Assembly: GCA_951406725.2 (NCBI GenBank)
Contig: OX597827.1
Span: 50,158,001 to 50,222,000, forward strand
Source of the DNA: Octopus vulgaris
Taxonomy: Eukaryota
Direction of reading: 5' to 3'
DNA length: 64,000 nucleotides
A program made the position numbers and the translations under genes. The first letter of the stretch is position 1; the number at the start of each line of letters is the position of its first letter. Below are positions 49,851 to 61,890 of this stretch, in pieces. The notes below the pieces were generated by a model, which worked only from the letters and a program-made list of their open reading frames with translations, was not told the DNA's origin and made no database searches.

Positions 49851-50166
49851 CAAGAAATGGTGGTTTTATATCCTGCGACAGGTTGGTGTGCATAAATTAT
49901 GTAGCGGAGGTTTAATCAATATGTTCACACGACGTACTTCGCGAGACTACCAAAACACTCTCCTTTTCTTTATTTAGCCAAACAGGGCCTAACATAGAGG
50001 CAACAAACAAGGATGGACAATGTAGGAGTAAAAAAAAAAAACGAATGAAAGGGTTATGGAATTGAAAAATGAAATGAACGCCACTCGTTGTGTGTGTGAT
50101 ATTTCTTTCCTTGATAAATCTTGTGCTGTTGCTGGGGGTGGGGGTGACAGCCTCACTTCATGTCCT

Positions 50167-50576
50167 GGATCTTTTCGGTTTGAACGGCAGTTTTTTCTAG
50201 CGGTGTCGTTTGAAATTGTCACCCATAATTATGACCCTGGTATCGATCTATTGCATTTCAATCTGTTTTAGGGTTAGGAGTGGGGGAAGGGTATCTTTTT
50301 TTCTTCACAAATGTAAATAAACCCAATCTGTTTCTTAAACGAGGGACATGTTCATACGACACAGAATGTTTTCACCTCAATAGACGTCGTTGATTGGTTT
50401 AAATTGCAGAAACTGAAGAATAACAACAACAAATATCTTACAAAATATAGAATTTTCTCAAAAAAGCCAAGAGAAAAAGATGTTTTGTAAACACATTCTA
50501 CCAGTATACGAAGTTTAAAAGTGTTTAGTTAGGTGGAAATTATTTTTAAAAACTGCTATTCAAATCGAAAAGATCC
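50167..50576. mobile_element. 410-bp MITE with GG-terminal TIRs and 8-bp TSD (Merlin- or hAT-like)
   Basis: GGATCTTTTCG.TTTGAA / TTCAAATCGAAAAGATCC; CATGTCCT at 50159-50166 and 50577-50584. Confidence 0.88.
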
Positions 50577-51078
50577 CATGTCCTTTTCTCTTATACAGTG
50601 TCATTTAACTGTTTACGTATCACATTAACTTACAGTTCATTATTCCTTTTTTTTTTTGCATCATTTTTTTAAAAAGTCCGTATTTAAAAATTCTTTAATA
50701 TTTCACTTACTTTCTTTTACATTAGATAGTCTATTATGCTCTCAAATGCCTCCAATGGTGGCAACTCGTCGAATCGAAACTGTAATGGTGATATATCTAT
50801 CATTTCCCCGAGTAGTTCCTTCAACTTTTCACCTTTCTCTTTTACAAGCAAGACTGCTTTTAATCCTTCATTGTATTCATTGGGTGCTAACTTCACCCTA
50901 ATTACATTTTTCATTTTGGTGATCTTTTTTTTCAATCTCCACATTTTTTCTGTACTGTATCCTATGATACAGTTTTTTTCGTAAGTGTTTTCCCTTCAGT
51001 GATTCTTTCTGATTTCCATCACTAATCTCATCATTCTCCAACTGAATTTGCTACGCTGTCTGATGAACGAATCTGAAG

Positions 51079-51099
<21 letters not shown>

Positions 51100-51109
<10 letters not shown>

Positions 51110-51512
51110 ATGTTATGTCTGTGTTTGTGCCCTCATTACCGCTTGACAAGCAGTGTTGGTGTATTTACGTCCCCATTACTTAGCGGTTTGGGGAAAGAGG
51201 TTGATAGAATAAGTATTAGGCTTAAACAAATAAGTCCTGGGGTTGACTTGTTCCACTGAAACACTTCAAGGCTGCAGTCAAAACGGTTGACAGAAGTCAA
51301 ACATTTAAACGAATAAAAGAATATACTCTCTCTTTTTACTCTTTTACTTGTTTCAGTCATTTGACTGTGGCCATGCTGGAGCACCGCCTTTAGTTGAGCG
51401 TATCGACCCCAGGACTTATTTTTTGTAAGCCTAGTACTTATTCAATCGGTCACTTTTGCTGAACCGCTAAGTTACGGGAACGTAAACACACCAGGATCGG
51501 TTGTCAAGACAA

Positions 51513-51515
<3 letters not shown>
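51100..51515. mobile_element. tail-to-tail SINE family A 3' halves
   Basis: 51100-51320 plus, 51335-51515 minus. Confidence 0.8.
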
Positions 51516-51555
<40 letters not shown>

Positions 51556-51557
<2 letters not shown>

Positions 51558-51761
51558 GTGAATCCAAACATGAAAATACAAAGAGAAAGGACAACAACGC
51601 GAGGACGTGGAACAAGTATATGTTATTGGACGTCCAGGAAAGGAAAGAGAGGAGGATTTAACGTTTCGAGCGGAGCTCTTCATCAGAAACAGAGGAAAAG
51701 GAAAGATCTAAGGAAGGGAAGACGGAGGAAAAAATCGCCAACGATACATACGCGGTCACAT
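51556..51761 (-). mobile_element. second copy of the 200-bp hammerhead-bearing repeat
   Basis: 51657-51689 is the exact reverse complement of 7501-7533. Confidence 0.8.
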
Positions 51762-52081
51762 ATAAAAAAAATTTGCCATAAAGGCATGATACGGAGTAGC
51801 TTGCGGGCTGGACAGAAACATTGATGAGGTGAATGATGAAATAAAATGATATTCATGGGAGAAGACAAAAAAACGCCCGCCGATTTTTTGCTTCTCTAAA
51901 ACATTATTTTTTAACACAAAAAACAACCGAGGTATTGAACCTCTTACTTCCGTTTTACAATTATTGGACTTGATAGTCCATTTACAAATTAAAACATTAT
52001 TATTTTTAGCACAGAAAACAAACACAGGCATTGAACATCTTACTTCCGTTTTTACAATTATTGGACTTAATAGTCCATTTA

Positions 52082-53424
52082 GAAATTATATATCTTGCAA
52101 ACAACTTGCACATGCAAGTGCTACCAGTTAAAAGCTCCGTATATCGGAAGCTAGCAAGTGTATAGGGTCATCAGGAGAGAATGCGCGCCGTTTCGGGGCC
52201 TACCTCTCGACGGCATCAATGCGCACCGGCCCCCCTCACTGATATGAGGCCCCGCTTGCTAGATCAGCTGGTTATGATGAACTCAATATACTTCTAGCCA
52301 TCGCTCATCGTCTCTTTTTAACCAAATCCAGTGGCTAGCCTTCTCCACTGTAGATTGGATATCAGTCATGGTGGTATTGACTTTACGATGAGTTAGGCCT
52401 AACGATAACAACAGTCGTCTCACGCTGTGTCCTACAAACCCTCTACATCCGACTTCGATAGGAAAATGTTCCGCTTTCCAGCCTGCGTCTTCACATTCCT
52501 CGAGGAGGTTTTCATAACGGTTTAATTTTCGAGCTCGAGCGGCGTCCATATTATCTTCGTGAGGAACCGTTAGCTCGACTATATTTACAACTTTCTTTCT
52601 TTCACACCACATCAAAATATCTGGTTTTTTCGAAACTGGGATGGGAAAGAAAACCTGGCACCCAGGTAAATCTGCAGTTACCTCCCAATAGCCGTTCCAC
52701 TTTTCATTTTTCTCAGGAAGTTTCTTGGTCTTCTTCTTGAAACGGATCTGCTGACCTGGTCGCACGAAGGTAATGAACTCTCTTGATGGTACTTTTAACG
52801 ATTTTTCCTCAGTGTTGTTGAGATGAATTTGGTTCTTTATAGCATTGAAGATAACCTTAAGGACCAAGTTGTGCCTCCATGTGTACCTGTTCAATGCTAA
52901 TGAACAGTTGGAAAGAATATGTTTTAGTGTACCGACTTTTCCACATTTGCAGATGTCATTCTCTAAGACGTTCCATCTTACTAGATTCGTAGGTGATGGC
53001 AAAACATCATAAGATGAACGAATCAGGAAACTCAGCCGAGATGTTGTCCACTTCCACATCTCATCCCAACTTATCTTCCTCTCAACATGTTCTTCCCATC
53101 TCGTCATCTGACCTTGATGAACACATCGGATCAAATGAAGCTCTCTTCTCTCTGCTTCTCTTGTTTTGACGCCGTTGCTAACAACAGATCTGCGTTCACA
53201 CGGCATCATGCTTGCAAACGGTCTGAACTGATCTGCGCCAAGACCAAATCCTTTCCGATGGTTCTGCGTTGCTCCCACCATATCTCTGTGTGTAAGAGAA
53301 GACAAGATGTTGTCAGTTTCTGCTTCTGCTTTCCACTTCCTGGCTGTTTTCACCTCTGGTGGGTTACGCCTGATTTCCATATCCTTCGATTCTCTCAGCA
53401 TCATGACCGTCCGTACCTTCCCCA
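52082..53424 (-). mobile_element. 5'-truncated HERO/NeSL-type non-LTR retrotransposon with intact C-terminal frame (CCHC zinc knuckle plus restriction-like endonuclease)
   Basis: 'CKCGKVGTLKHILSNC', 'RYTWRHNLVL', 'KPDIL', 'VELTVPHE', 'RKLNRY', 'PIEVGCRG'; perfect 17-bp TSD ACTTAATAGTCCATTTA at 52065-52081 and 53425-53441. Confidence 0.92.
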
Positions 53425-53673
53425 ACTTAATAGTCCATTTACAAATTGAGGCGCCGAGCCTCTTACACACTTAAAGATTATAACACTGAGGCTTTTCAAC
53501 CTCTTGTCAATTTTCCTCCCCAACATCGCTTGTGCCCGTATACTCCGCCATCGTCCACGCCTCGTTTAAAACCAAGGCGAGCTCCGAGTCGGCGTCGCCC
53601 GGCCACAAGCGATATTCATCTTTGAGTCCGTGCAACTTACGCATCACGGGCAACGTTATGGCCTCCACAGCTA

Positions 53674-53802
53674 TCTGTTCGAAGGATTATTTACCTAATT
53701 TCAGTAGTCTCCTTTAGAGAGACTTAGAAATAATAATATTTCTATTTTTGAAGACCAGTGGATGTATTTCACTGAAATTCGGTAAATAATCCTTCGAACA
53801 GA
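53674..53802. repeat. 129-bp hairpin element with 32-bp inverted repeats
   Basis: 53674-53705 versus 53771-53802, one mismatch. Confidence 0.85.
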
Positions 53803-54045
53803 CGGTCAGCAGCGACGCCTACTGGGTTTGGCTACTCTGCATTGATAGAGGGTAAATACCCTGAAACATGTCTGCAGATGCCTGACCAGCAAGGGGAAGC
53901 GGCTGACCTTCCCTGTTCGAAGAAGGTTATAATGGACACAGTTTCGCGTGTCATATAGCTATCTAGAGGCGATGGCTTCTTGGAACTAATCAACGGCAGC
54001 TTTAGTCCTATATTTATGGACTGCCATATTAGATTGGCGATAACT

Positions 54046-54083
<38 letters not shown>

Positions 54084-54394
54084 TAATAATAATAATAATA
54101 ATAATGATAATAATAATAATAATAATTCCAGGCTTACCATCCTTACAGGAAGTGCAAAAAATCGTATTAACTGGAACGGCTCATGTACTGAGAAGAGCAC
54201 TATCACTGCGAAAATAACATTCATCCATGAATTTATTTATTTATTAATTTTTAAATACATATTTTATCTGTGAATTTGCGCGTGTAATCTAGGAATGCAT
54301 ACAATGAGCTTCTCTGTCCTAGGTGTATGGAAAACACTCGGCGAGAAACGGAAGAAAATTTGAAGAAAGAAGGAAAAAACATAATAATAACAAT

Positions 54395-54590
54395 TTCTAC
54401 TAAAGGCACGAGGCCTGAAATTTTGGGTGGGCATGGACTAGTCGATTTTATCGACCTCAGTATTTGACTTAATTTATCGACCTCGAAAGGATGAAAGGCA
54501 AAGTCGACCTCGGCGGAATTTGAACTCAGAACGTAAAGACAGATGAAATACCGCTAACGGCGTGCTAACGATGCAGCCAGCTCGCCGCCT
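54395..54590 (-). mobile_element. SINE family B
   Basis: family consensus, short-tail subfamily. Confidence 0.85.
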
Positions 54591-55944
54591 TAATAATAAT
54601 GATAATAATAACAATAATATCGTATGGGTATGTATGCGAGCGCGCGTATATATAGTGTGTGTATGTGTGCGTATGCGTGTATATGTGAATAGGGCAAAAC
54701 ATTGCTATGAACATATCGAATTTGATATTTCGGAGACATTGGTATCGTAACAGAAGAGGACGACCATTTAATTATATTTTTATTTTTAGAGAAATCGAAC
54801 ATAAAATTGAGGGCTTGCTAAAGCTAATCCGAGGGAATTTCTGACGCTACCATGAAATTGATCCGAGTTGCGGACTCTTGAAAACTATAATTAGGAATAG
54901 TTTCCCTTACATCGGGTGGTTGTTTTACAGAGTAGTTTCCCTTGTTCTTAAGATTTACGTATTCTACTTTCTGCGGAAGAAAAAGCGAATTCGAAATTTT
55001 CTGAAAACATCTTTTCAGAGTTGCTGGAACATTATTATGAAAGTTCAAAACTCATTGAGCAAGAGGTGACAAAGCCACCTAAATGTAACCGAACTTATGT
55101 TAATGAGGAAAAAAAATGAAATTGTTATAACATAAAGAACCTTAAAATTTTAACAGTGTAATTCTAACCGATAAAGAACATAAAGAAATTATAAATATGA
55201 ATTTTCTGATCATTGAGCCGAAATTATGAACAAAATAAAGAAAAGTGACAATTTCCCTACGGATGAAACAGAAATGCAGCACCCAACCAGTGTAATGCCG
55301 CAATAGGCTGTGCATTTCATGAAGGGCGTGTGTTATGCTGAATTTGAGAAGAGAAATTGTTTTCAGTTTATATTTTCATATAATTCTACTCTGATTGTAA
55401 AGAAAGCATTCCGTGACAGTCGTCAATGCTCATTTTCTTACGATTACTTATTTCGATTTTAAAGATTTTATGGCTTAGTAAGAAAAGTATTTCCCATGAA
55501 TCTTTACAAGTAATTGATAAGGAGGAAAAGGACGAAATAAACCCTAACCCATGTTGCAACAACTGACTCTGCTAAAAAAAATTAGGGTTAAACCAGGTTG
55601 GCGGTTGAATAAACCGTGTCTTTAATCCATAGACTACGTGAGGAAAATTTGTGGAAAAGTTGTGCATGGTCAATTGTGTAGTTCTATATCTGTGAAATGT
55701 GACACTTATATGGATAACAAAAGGAAGACAAATAAGTGTGTTGAGTGGTACTTTTTATATATATGGCAAATTAATTTATTTGATCATTAATACACAAACT
55801 CGAGTTTGGGATTAACTATAAATAATTGTTTTCATTCTCTTTGGAATTACTTTGTTCGTGGTTTGGGCTTCCCTCTCTAGCATGTAAGGCGTCCAGTAGA
55901 GGGTCTCCTCTCTGTGTATAAATACTATACACTTATAACCAGTC

Positions 55945-56436
55945 TCGACGGTGGTTCCAGAAATTCCGAGCTGGAATCTACAACCTAGAAGACGAACCTC
56001 ATCTTCGAAGATCTGTAGAGCTCGACGAGAACGTCGTGCAAACCCTGGTGGAACAAAATCTCATCAACTGTTGAGGAACTATTAGCGAAGCTTGGATTTA
56101 GTCATTCAACTATTTATCGAGAAGTGTCATCGAAAAAGTCAGCAAATTGGGTCACTGGGTTCCTCACAAACTTTCCGAGTCTAATCGCACGCAGAAAGTG
56201 AATGTGTGCTCTTCTTTGCTCTCACGTCTCACGAAATGAACCATTTTTGGACCGAATAGTGACTGGTGACGAGTAATGGGTTCTCTATAAAAATATAGCG
56301 AGGACGATATTCTAAAGACTGGAGCAGTTTAAATGAGAAACGATGCCCCATCTGATTGTCATTTATTTTGCAGTCTTCAAAATCATTTGGAAGGAAAAAA
56401 GTTTGAATTCTGTAGACGAGGAGTATTTTTCGTCAC
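55945..56436 (+). mobile_element. deleted mariner fragment, same family as 17142-18386
   Basis: TGGGTTCCTCACAAACTT (WVPHKL) and GTGACTGGTGACGAG (VTGDE). Confidence 0.8.
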
Positions 56437-56622
56437 GGATAATAATACTAATATTTAGAGGTACTATTTCTACTGCTACGACCACTACCACTAACAACAA
56501 CAACAATATTAAAGGTGCTCATGATGATGATAGCAGGAAAATACTAGCTAAGCAAAGAGAAAAGTCAGTAAAGATAATCTTATTTTGGGGTTTAAAGTTC
56601 TATCGCCACAGCTACTCCTACC

Positions 56623-56653
<31 letters not shown>

Positions 56654-57019
56654 GCCGTCCAAGAATTTGGACCTGGAGATCTCCATTTCCAGCGACTTCG
56701 AGGGCCACCTCCCAGTGGTTTCGGGCATCAACGAAGAGCCCTCGACTACAACAAGAAGACCAAAGTTGTTTTTTTTCTAAGGTCTGGGGTCTCCTGCTCC
56801 TAAGCCCTAGACCATCACCTAATCACCTTTACCCGTCTTAACAACGACAATAACCAGCAACAACAACAGCAACAACGACAATAATAATACAGGAGTTGAT
56901 AACGGTGATGAGGATAATTGAAATGTAGAAATCGCTGGGAAATGTTGTTTACAACATTTCTAAAAATGAGATAGCATAAGATGACCTCCATTACACGACA
57001 ATCCTAAATCAATCACAGT

Positions 57020-57480
57020 TACTGGAAAGTTAGTGAACATTAACCCGAGGACATCAGAAGGATCTGCACATAACCATCTGTCATTTCTCTTGTTGTATGT
57101 TTGGTCTTAGTCGAAGTTTTTCTCATCGGACAACCAAAGCTTATCATACTCTCGTGAGAGTTTTTAACCTCGTTAAGAAGCCGTTTAAAACGGATCAAAC
57201 AGTTTTCCTGTGTCTTTGCACACATGATATAATCTCTCCTCAGTACAAACTACTAGGTAATGAATGTCCTCGTGCATCATATTTCTGGTAGTCCGATCCA
57301 TCAACTGAAGTTATATGGGGCTATAGCCATCATTGATTTCAGAACTCAATGGATGAATTGGGGATGTTTTTATAGTGTGCAGAAAAGCTTATGCAACACT
57401 GAGAGTTGGCATTTTCTAAATCGCTGTGTTCCACATATATAAGGCAACAATGACTGCATGTTTTTTTCATTTCTTGTGTT
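57020..57480 (-). mobile_element. Tc1/mariner-superfamily transposase fragment (maT-like)
   Basis: 'RFKRLLNEVK...LSDEKNFD*DQ..N.RNDRWL' across frames. Confidence 0.6.
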
Positions 57481-58008
57481 AGCATTTTATCTACCATGGA
57501 AATTCTAAAAGAGACAAAACCTTTTCAGTTGGTTTGAAGTGCGTAATATATTGATAATTTAGTGTCCCCAAACACCCCTTGCACACAGCACACAGCATAC
57601 ATGCCTGCATACATACATACATACATACATACATACATACATACATACATACATACATAGAAAAATACCCTGTTGATGTTGAAATTCCAATGAAGGGACC
57701 TTGGATCTAAGCTAGAAACCGATTCTATCTCTATTGGCAAGAAATCTTGAAATAAAATTGGATAATGAGATACATAGGTTTCGTAGAACAGCTTGGGGAA
57801 CTACAACTACAATACGTGAGTATATATATTTTATTATTTTAATCGACAGATATTACAATGTGACTTATGGGTTACGTAGGGAACATTTACCTCTTGTATC
57901 GCTTCATATGTCTACCGATTAAAATAATAGGTATGTATGTATGTATGTATGTATGTATGTATGTATGTATGTATGTATGTATGTATGTATGTATGTATGT
58001 ATGTATGT

Positions 58009-59930: not shown

Positions 59931-60781
59931 TATATATATACGACGGGCTTCTTTCAGTTTCCGTTTACCAAATCCACTCACAAGGCTTTGGTCGGCTCAA
60001 GGCTATAGTAGAAGACATTTATCCAAGGTACCACGCAGTGGAACTGAACCCGGAACCACGAGATTGGTAAGCAAGCTACTTACCACACAGCCACTCCTGC
60101 GCCTGTTTACGACGTTTAACATTTCGATAGAAGACCCATTTTTCGTCACCAGTCACAAGTCTATCCAAAAAGGGTGAAATAAGTTCGTGCGAATGGAGAG
60201 AAGAGTAGATTCGGGATTCGCGGTTGCTTTCGAACAATTCATGAGGCACCCATTTTCCAAGGTTAGGAACCTTTCCAAGTTGTTGAAGATGACAAGGAAT
60301 AGTTGTATGGTTTGAACTAAGCTTTATTGACAATTCTTCAACTGATAATGCAGGATTTTCTTCAAGTAATGCCTCAAGGAGCTTATCATCAAACTCAACT
60401 GGACGCCTTCTTCGATTTTCATCTTCAAGGCTGAAATCTCCACTTCTCAATTTTGCAAACCATCTTCTGCAAGTTCTTTCATTCAAGCATTCTTTCCCAT
60501 AAACTGAGTGTATGTTTCGAGTCGCTTCGGCTGCAGGGTTTCCTTTTTTGTACTCATAAAGCATTATGTGCCTCAAATGCTCTTTGGATACTTCCACGCT
60601 ATAAAAGGTTTTAATCAAAGAGATCTTAATTCTACTATTCTGTAAAATAATATTTAATTAGTTTAAATGTACACAAATGCATAAAAATAATTTTTAATTC
60701 CATTAGACATTCTAAAATACTATTAAATTTCATTCAATTTTAAAAAAGTTCAAATCGGACACAACTTATGGGATGACCTGA
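59018..60781 (-). mobile_element. mariner transposon interrupted by SINE family A (59623-60103)
   Basis: TIR TCAGGTCATCCCAT with TA TSD; 'EHLRHIMLYEY..G', 'WVPHEL', 'VTGDEKW', 'HPPCSHDHA'. Confidence 0.93.
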
Positions 60782-61003: not shown

Positions 61004-61890
61004 TCACTCTCTCCTCCTCCATCTCTCCTTCTGGAGGAGAAGGGGCAGGTGGTTCTTCCACAACTCCAGGACCCTGCTCTGGTCCTTGGGACAGTTCTTC
61101 TTAATGTGGCCATTAATGTGGCCAGGGTCTAGGCACTGATGACACTTGGTGGGGCGCCCCTCAAGAATCACCAGATACCTGGACCCGGCCATCCTCAAAA
61201 AATCCGGGAACACCAGATCATCGGCTGATTGGGTCCACAAAGTCAAAACTGCTTTTGACCCCACCCAATCAGCAGCAGGCATCATTTTAACATTTAAGAG
61301 CTTGGCTCCGCTGCCACCCAGATCCCGGCGGATAGTGTCCTTTATCCACTCGGGCTCTATTCCGAGTGGCAGCCCACACAAGCAAGCTCTTGTCAATTTC
61401 CTCCCACGATATTTGGGCAGAAACAGAATTTTTCCCCTTCCAAGGGTTGGCTCGCAAAAATGCGAGCCTCCTCAGGGTTATCGAATAGCAACCACATTGT
61501 TGCATATTTGACACCCCTTTCAATAAACTTGATGGTTGGCAGGTATTCTTCCAACTCCTTCTCAATATCTACTTGAGTGATGGTGATGGTGTCGAGAGAC
61601 TTGGAATATGTCCTCAACACCACCGTTCTCTCATTAAGGTCATTTACTTGCTTGCTGGGTACGTTTTCCACTCCAAGACAGTGTTTTTATTTTTTACCAT
61701 GCTTTGCAAAAAACACAGGAAAATGTTAAAAAAAGTTCAAAGAAACACACAGAAAGAACAGAAAGACAGATCAGAGAAAAGAAGGAAAGAAGACAGTTCC
61801 AGCACGGCAACACAATTCCGACACTTAGGTAATCCGGGTTCACAGGTAATCCTTCAGAATATTGCTTCACACAGGTACTCCAGTTCACCG
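61004..61890 (-). mobile_element. L1/Tx1-type LINE 5' region, ORF1 (gag-like CCHC knuckle), frameshifted
   Basis: ORFs 61393-61671 and 61004-61396; 'GRPTKCHQCLDPGH..KNCP'. Confidence 0.7.

Follow-up and report, generated by a model that had tools for sequence, protein, structure and literature searches.

The window analyzed here, a 64,000-nucleotide stretch of Octopus vulgaris DNA, holds on its minus strand a retrotransposon whose 3′ untranslated region (UTR) contains every core segment of a hammerhead ribozyme, arranged in an unfamiliar order. This raises two questions: whether these segments form a genuine hammerhead-type RNA that cuts itself, and what such an RNA would do in the tail of a protein-coding element. 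A preliminary description, made from the letters of the DNA, had proposed a permuted and knotted hammerhead with a specific cleavage site; the segments that it named are all present at the minus-strand coordinates that it gave, and some of its helix assignments are revised below.

The host element and the anatomy of its 3′ UTR motif

The element is a 5′-truncated copy of a non-LTR retrotransposon (Table 1) that is 98 to 99% identical to other copies up to position 53429. Complete units measure 3,737 nt (~3.74 kb) and contain one open reading frame (ORF), intact at 1,175 aa in locus L129, that encodes a reverse transcriptase (RT) and a C-terminal restriction-like endonuclease (RLE) region, the RLE motif being judged by eye against its consensus. 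The part of this ORF that is retained in the window presumably comprises a zinc-knuckle-like region together with the endonuclease region. RVT_1 is the only Pfam assignment of the intact frame (E = 5.7e-19), and its top PDB matches are R2 proteins, with L1 also among the best; neither a telomerase-like RT nor a GIY-YIG domain was assigned. The closest named relative of the protein is from Argonauta, and its RT motifs (in the L129 frame) closely resemble, by eye, two HERO rows of the PMC7650587 supplement, HERO-1_BF and HEROTn, in agreement with the HERO affiliation proposed in the preliminary description. A search of the octopus's own genome (2.8 Gb) yielded 40 scored copies at 99 to 100% identity from among 2,544 candidates, and an exact 24-mer spanning the predicted cut occurs 523 times, such that the genome holds at least 523 copies. 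No relatives of the element were found among the viral contigs searched.

Other repeats occur nearby. Upstream of the element, positions 53672 to 53806 form a long, nearly perfect inverted repeat that has weak matches to miRNA families and is probably a small DNA transposon, and a mariner-like transposase fragment (60076 to 60657) and a gag-like zinc-knuckle frame (61004 to 61471), both on the minus strand, were recognized by eye.

Table 1. Features of the HERO-type element and its hammerhead-like motif (window coordinates)
Feature	Position	Strand	Remarks
HERO-type RLE non-LTR retrotransposon, 5′-truncated	52090..53424	(-)	Last 1.33 kb of the 3.74-kb unit
C-terminal part of the ORF	52283..53424	(-)	Stop TGA at 52285-52283 ends a 395-aa open frame
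P4, 5′ strand (distal 52262-52255, proximal 52253-52250)	52250..52262	(-)	Pairs with 52158-52151 and 52167-52164
P6 hairpin, second inserted helix between A9 and G10.1	52234..52249	(-)	Zero-linker junction in homologues
Stem II, 5′ strand (10.x), corrected register	52228..52233	(-)	Homologue anatomy and covariation; GGGGCC with 52200-52195
P5, 5′ strand, equivalent of the type-SGC stem I-II interaction helix	52221..52227	(-)	Pairs with 52186-52180; covariation; PMC10085705
Block S: stem III strand, U16.1 (52210), C17 (52209), predicted cut 52209^52208, stem I strand	52204..52214	(-)	
Block G: stem II 3′ strand, GAAA (52194-52191), stem III 3′ strand	52187..52200	(-)	Preceded by 3-nt linker 52203-52201
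P5 3′ strand, stem I 3′ strand (52179-52175), CUGAUGA (52174-52168)	52168..52186	(-)	Homologue anatomy and alignment
P4, 3′ strand	52151..52167	(-)	CCCU in the window copy; CCCC in 27/30 young copies
Hairpin P7 with TA-rich loop (+64..+66)	52134..52151	(-)	Loop is the second 5′-truncation hot spot
Terminal hairpin, with the ragged 3′ termini of copies	52083..52122	(-)	Putative internal RT start at +119..+126
17-nt sequence, repeated at 53441-53425	52065..52081	(-)	Possible target-site duplication; flank itself a short tandem repeat

The motif lies 3′ of the ORF stop. Read 5′ to 3′, it consists of P4a, the P6 hairpin, stem IIa, P5a, a joint, stem IIIa, UH, the cut, and stem Ia, followed by a short linker, stem IIb, GAAA, stem IIIb, a joint, P5b, stem Ib, CUGAnGA, and P4b. 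Helices P4, P6, P5, and III are nested, and stems I and II form pseudoknots. In the notation of Eckert et al. 2023 (PMC10085705), which defines blocks C, G, and S and their six permutations, the order is S-G-C and not the circular-permutation order of types I to III, as had been recognized from the strand order at the outset. A9 is not directly followed by stem II (P4 and P6 intervene), and no uninterrupted block C closes the motif (the 5′ strand of stem II lies upstream); in the modeled fold, the core, P4, P6, and stem II would form a perfect four-way junction. Pair probabilities in P4 range from 0.88 to 1.0, with a single pair at 0.5. The nested minimum-free-energy (MFE) fold is unremarkable (z = −0.08) and is uninformative for stems I and II because both are pseudoknots and fall outside the scope of the program. 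An Rfam scan of positions 50000 to 58000 returned no hammerhead match at E ≤ 10, bearing out the expectation that standard models would miss the motif.

Homologous elements correct the preliminary description at two points. It had placed the 5′ strand of stem II at 52253-52247; the junction of P4, P6, and stem II in homologues puts this strand at 52233-52228 instead, and the former segment comprises the GGGG of P4, which pairs with the bases right after CUGAUGA, plus the start of the P6 hairpin. Likewise, what had been drawn as a single 8-bp helix between A9 and G10.1 is actually two helices, P4 and P6, and neither the P6 hairpin nor P5 had appeared in that description. Hairpin P7, downstream of the motif, has similar counterparts in L151 to L155.

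Conservation and covariation among homologous elements

An alignment of 45 C-terminal domains served to gather homologues; of 261 metagenome stretches, the 80 best were used. The descriptor applied to their 3′ UTRs consisted of block S, a short linker, block G, stem I with CUGAnGA, and a stem II partner upstream; U16.1 and H17 were required, G16.2 was not, and P4 and P6 formed no part of it. It matches 46 of the 80 homologous 3′ UTRs as well as the window, versus none of 81 reverse complements and none of 810 dinucleotide shuffles (0/891 in total), and across both strands of the entire window it has one match, the motif itself (52262-52151). Allowing one defect adds 9 of the 34 remaining homologues (controls, 0/162). 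Among the 67 loci with a tail of at least 150 nt, 45 match strictly, 8 match under the relaxed form, and 14 are blank; about 6 of these 14, among those listed, look decayed or interrupted by eye.

The proteins of motif carriers are 30 to 100% identical (median, 43%), and the carriers are spread over the whole of a FastTree tree (built without support values), in which named fish, amphioxus, sea-urchin, mussel, and hydrozoan proteins are interleaved. A MAFFT alignment of 29 descriptor-selected motifs, which is blind to structure, has a mean identity of 42%, and GAAAC and CUGA-GA alone are invariant. On this alignment, 88.6% of the cells in stems I, II, III, and P5 pair, and double changes occur at 18 of 21 pairs; none of 500 shuffles reaches either the paired share or the covariation score, and slid controls pair at 31 to 49%, with the qualification that the pairing counts lean toward the model because the sequences were selected for pairing in stems I to III. 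Among 31 non-redundant motifs, the cleavage-site triplet is always GUH (GUC in 12, GUU in 11, and GUA in 8), G16.2 pairs with C15.2 throughout, the closing pair G10.1-C11.1 is GC in 27 and GU in 4, and N7 takes all four bases. Zero-linker junctions of A9 with P4, P4a with P6, and P6 with stem II are present in 26 of these 31 motifs, versus a mean of 0.66 and a maximum of 4 over 500 shuffles. The joint between stem III and P5 fits the kink-turn pattern (GA opposite NNN-GA) in 19 of 31, and the subgroup of the window has a bulge instead. The preliminary description had suggested that homologous 3′ UTRs be aligned and inspected for covariation and core invariance: the core is kept and the helices covary, and the hammerhead blocks, each beside its correct flanking helix, are conserved across the HERO-like clade. 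That the hammerhead-type fold is real is nearly certain.

The P6 loops of 16 of the 31 non-redundant homologues (e.g., L162, L173, L160, and L207) present self-complementary hexamers with compensating variants (TGATCA, TGGCCA, GACGTC, and AGTACT), which are absent from the short-P6 subgroup that includes the window. Their palindromic sequence suggests that these loops may form kissing-loop dimers like those of retroviral dimer initiation.

Genomic copies and the predicted cut

If the RNA is cut, run-off by the RT would produce copies that start at the first base after the cut, which we number +1 (52208), the preceding base (52209) being −1. A pattern designed to catch 5′ truncations from −12 to +33 returned 66 matches, all of which were examined: 29 end within this interval (including one inversion and one ambiguous case), and 7 of the 29 start exactly at +1, against a null of 0.024 per end derived from real flanks under the same filter (P = 4e-6; P = 1.8e-4 for any position). 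Among copies with a base other than C at −1, 10 of 51 start at +1. The cleavage site originally predicted, between 52209 and 52208, is thus matched by a spike of genomic 5′ ends at 52208. Fourteen distinct +1 copies are known in total; their unrelated flanks and several subfamily variants rule out a single short SINE-like master. A T precedes +1 in 13 of the 14, and for the first 13 copies the count was 12, versus 45 of 93 at other truncations (P = 0.001). This T suits the addition of a non-templated A at RT run-off, A being the preferred base in such additions. The R2 RT does add non-templated nucleotides (PMC8857657).

The +1 site is not the only place at which truncations cluster. With a wider pattern (139 matches, 106 examined), 6 of 46 ends fall at +1 (5 shared with the earlier sets), and another 10 of the 46 were placed at +65/+66 against 2.8 expected, one of them being a duplicate. 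By eye, this second cluster is spread over +64 to +66, in the TA-rich loop of P7, and is similar in size to the +1 cluster; it may stem from microhomology with TA-rich targets or from nicking of the loop. No TA microhomology exists at the +1 site. The second cluster implies that truncation hot spots have more than one cause and that a ribozyme is not required.

About 98% of copies (523 intact) cross the predicted cut seamlessly, and most templates must therefore have been uncut or re-joined. No copies with 1 to 12 extra bases at the cut junction were found, versus the 523 seamless ones, and variants with C to T at −1 and G to A at +1 are about equally common, as decay of a CpG predicts. Priming at the cleaved 3′ end was also considered and was rejected, with no copy ending at the cut at the 30 loci examined of 37 matches. 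Judged from sequence evidence, it is quite probable that the motif RNA self-cleaves.

Some copies are rearranged within this region. Single-copy internal deletions between short motif repeats have removed parts of the ribozyme in L076, L113, L115, and L122, and L118 and L125 have one junction in common, at which a piece that ends at +18 gives way to sequence that resumes at −139; this may reflect a template switch.

The element's own 3′ end stands in front of all 19 copies that hold the ORF start, joined to them via one invariant junction. The upstream pieces begin anywhere from +96 to about −1850 (the longest is 1,979 nt); 16 of the 19 extend past the cut, none of the 19 starts at +1, and at 8 of the 19 loci two whole ribozymes flank a full unit. 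The N terminus of a next ORF follows the tail at 9 of the 80 homologous loci. Contigs bridge the end-to-start junction in three of four Logan runs, tentatively of RNA; contigs show no ends, and for this reason they are given no weight here. Across 94 copies, the 3′ terminus is ragged and lies between +116 and +126, except in two copies that continue into the following unit. Of 88 such ends, 39 continue with the C of the junction, against a background of 0.18, an excess from which it follows that the template continues beyond the RT start. The ~120 nt of element beyond the cut, for which the preliminary description had invoked regulated cleavage or paired products, cease for the most part to be a puzzle, given that the element is organized as a permuted unit, head to tail. 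Outside microsatellites, no clear target-site duplications were seen at the ORF-start loci, so that a partial plus a full unit may, but need not, have been inserted in a single event.

Several further features accompany these junctions and tails. Following the end-to-start junction of L129 (3120 to 3215) are four small hairpins with a GAAAGA-like loop, and arrays of two to four occur in the tails of nine homologues (L172, L173, L182, L189, L196, L199, L202, L207, and L208); the array is a candidate protein-binding or translation element. L185 and L208, on one 9.1-kb contig, are two different family members arranged head to tail 3,730 nt apart, either a mixed tandem or an assembly chimera. Between the ORF stop and the ribozyme, tRNA-like A and B boxes were detected by pattern in L164, L165, L190, L199, L201, and L230 and by eye in L214; these loci are not independent, because six of the seven form one clade, and ARAGORN found no tRNA genes in 25 loci. 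On the sense strand of the A/B-box loci, 11.4 kb contains a single stretch of at least four T, and none occurs in the last 600 nt versus 6.5 expected. Boxes and scarce T runs, as read from the sequence, suggest possible Pol III transcription from the 3′ UTR.

A proposed replication cycle, its rivals, and known systems

Our preferred reading is that HERO elements carry a hammerhead-type RNA with S-G-C order and a split CUGAnGA that cuts after GUC, yielding unit RNAs that become circles and undergo multi-turn reverse transcription; we consider this moderately probable. The circle-based replication cycle in itself stands at slightly better than an even prospect. A fuller version, in which HERO elements would be autonomous LINE-type elements replicating via a protein-coding circular RNA and would possess a seventh hammerhead topology whose core is broken by a four-way junction, with junction stacking or the kissing of palindromic P6 loops as a possible cleavage switch, falls a little below even and is offered tentatively.

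The catalytic core could survive the break if A9-G12 stacks on G10.1-C11.1 while P4 stacks on P6, and the alternative stacking of the junction would constitute an off state. P5 and the short I-II linker would stand in for the loop contact between stems I and II, and the kink-turn-like or bulged joint would bend stem III into P5. A locus with a partial upstream repeat would carry two ribozymes, and cuts at both would release a monomer of 3.74 kb, extending from +1 to −1, that could be closed by a host RtcB-type ligase (retrozyme monomers are circularized by RtcB; PMC7229834) or by the ribozyme. The RT would prime internally at +119 to +126 on a nicked TA-rich target, internal priming by a Penelope-like RT in partial tandems having been described (PMC11167929). 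Most cDNAs would terminate early, a few would pass the junction and rebuild a partial tandem (the two-ribozyme master), and templates still open at the cut would give rise to the copies of 119 to 122 nt. We favor this model because it is the simplest account of the fixed junction, of inserts of up to 1.5 units, of seamless read-through, and of the minority of run-off copies.

The alternatives differ in how much of this they deny. Chance resemblance, which might be entertained from the MFE z score of −0.08 and the lack of an Rfam match, is hardly credible: it is already refuted by the 46 of 80 matches versus 0 of 891 controls, by the zero-linker P4/P6 junction, and by the covariation. We also hold it to be very unlikely that the fold is catalytically dead, a hammerhead derivative kept for protein binding or RT recognition. 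Such a fold would accommodate a core broken between A9 and G10.1, which is seen in no hammerhead alignment described in the portion of PMC10085705 drawn on here, as well as the position of the motif adjoining the RT start and the existence of a truncation hot spot owing nothing to a ribozyme; however, all catalytic-core positions and GUH are kept across proteins down to 30% identity, and the single-base spike fell on a scissile bond that had been predicted beforehand, at a site without TA microhomology.

Other rivals accept a ribozyme and dispute its role. One holds that it is slow or regulated and merely trims or down-regulates transcripts, with the tandems originating from uncut read-through RNA or from insertion beside older copies, a view that we rate as unlikely but deserving of some weight: most copies do cross the site, type-SGC RNAs cleave at rates as low as 0.007 to 0.19 per min (PMC10085705), and no target-site duplication proves single-event tandems. 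Insertion beside old copies, however, predicts many free or variable 5′ ends, yet all 19 share one junction, and with uncut linear templates, truncation would remove the upstream repeat, which nothing would then rebuild. Cleavage without a covalent circle is quite unlikely; here, the products would stay held together by stems I, II, III, P4, and P5, and the RT would jump the nick. The extensive pairing that spans the cut and the ability of the R2 RT to jump templates after non-templated addition (PMC8857657) are in keeping with such a jump, from which a +1 spike with a preceding T is equally expected, but the junction has no extra bases in any copy, and the near equality of the −1 and +1 transitions is what CpG decay predicts.

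A split form widespread in animal genomes would extend the design rules of the hammerhead and would mean that descriptor searches have overlooked a large family. Under the proposed cycle, the strategy of Penelope-like elements and retrozymes (partial tandems, hammerhead processing, and probably circles) would have arisen by convergence in an R2-like clade, in contrast with the usual view, in which a LINE RNA is linear and priming takes place at its 3′ end. A 112-nt RNA suffices for a direct test, and a young family with intact frames could bear on genome-writing tools derived from RLE elements. A search of mainly openly accessible papers found no hammerhead or tandem organization reported for HERO, and in this same literature the term type SGC appears in one paper only; HERO does not come up in a term search of two 2026 preprints, and the single occurrence of Hero in a 2026 review of R2 is not linked to a ribozyme.

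As with the 5′ HDV-like ribozymes of R2 and L1Tc, a ribozyme is predicted here to define the 5′ terminus of the template RNA of a non-LTR element (PMC13580325, PMC3185411); those ribozymes, however, belong to another class and sit at the true 5′ end, and R2 is not a permuted tandem. HERO shares with Penelope-like elements and their pseudo-LTRs an autonomous nature, partial tandems, a hammerhead in the repeated end, a ragged tail, and AT-rich targets (PMC11167929, PMC4209133), and an internal RT start has been shown for a Penelope-like element (PMC11167929) and is inferred for HERO. Penelope-like elements have a telomerase-like RT, a GIY-YIG domain, and atypical type I hammerheads, whereas the HERO element, which is R2-like and of the RLE kind, has a knotted core. 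Tandem repeats are also found in retrozymes, whose hammerhead-cut and ligated circles are the proposed RT templates that yield tandem cDNA (PMC7229834); unlike these non-autonomous elements of 170 to 400 nt with classical type I hammerheads, HERO is a coding 3.74-kb unit.

The closest structural parallel is type SGC, represented by HRIMA-1 and its variants, which has a 3-nt I-II linker and an interaction helix (PMC10085705). The HERO motif resembles it in the S-G-C order, the ~3-nt I-II linker, a P5-type helix that connects stems I and II at their other side, a double pseudoknot, and intact CUGAnGA and GAAA. It departs from type SGC in that block C is split, with the 5′ strand of stem II first and P4 and P6 between A9 and G10.1, and it corresponds to none of the six permutations, in which block C (CUGAnGA) was assumed to be uninterruptible (PMC10085705); natural core insertions reported elsewhere comprise one or two nucleotides, and some of them slow cleavage (PMC3088659), a point against the preferred reading. 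The settings differ as well: type-SGC motifs come from sequence collections without a named host, and the portion of that paper drawn on here reports such permuted motifs in no genome of a known organism except for one weak type-GCS candidate (PMC10085705), whereas the HERO motif resides in chromosomal animal retrotransposons. The preliminary description's suggestion of an undescribed topology accordingly holds for the split of block C and the HERO retrotransposon setting, and not for the S-G-C order, which was already known. In sum, the HERO motif and type SGC have the same cyclic wiring, opened in HERO inside block C.
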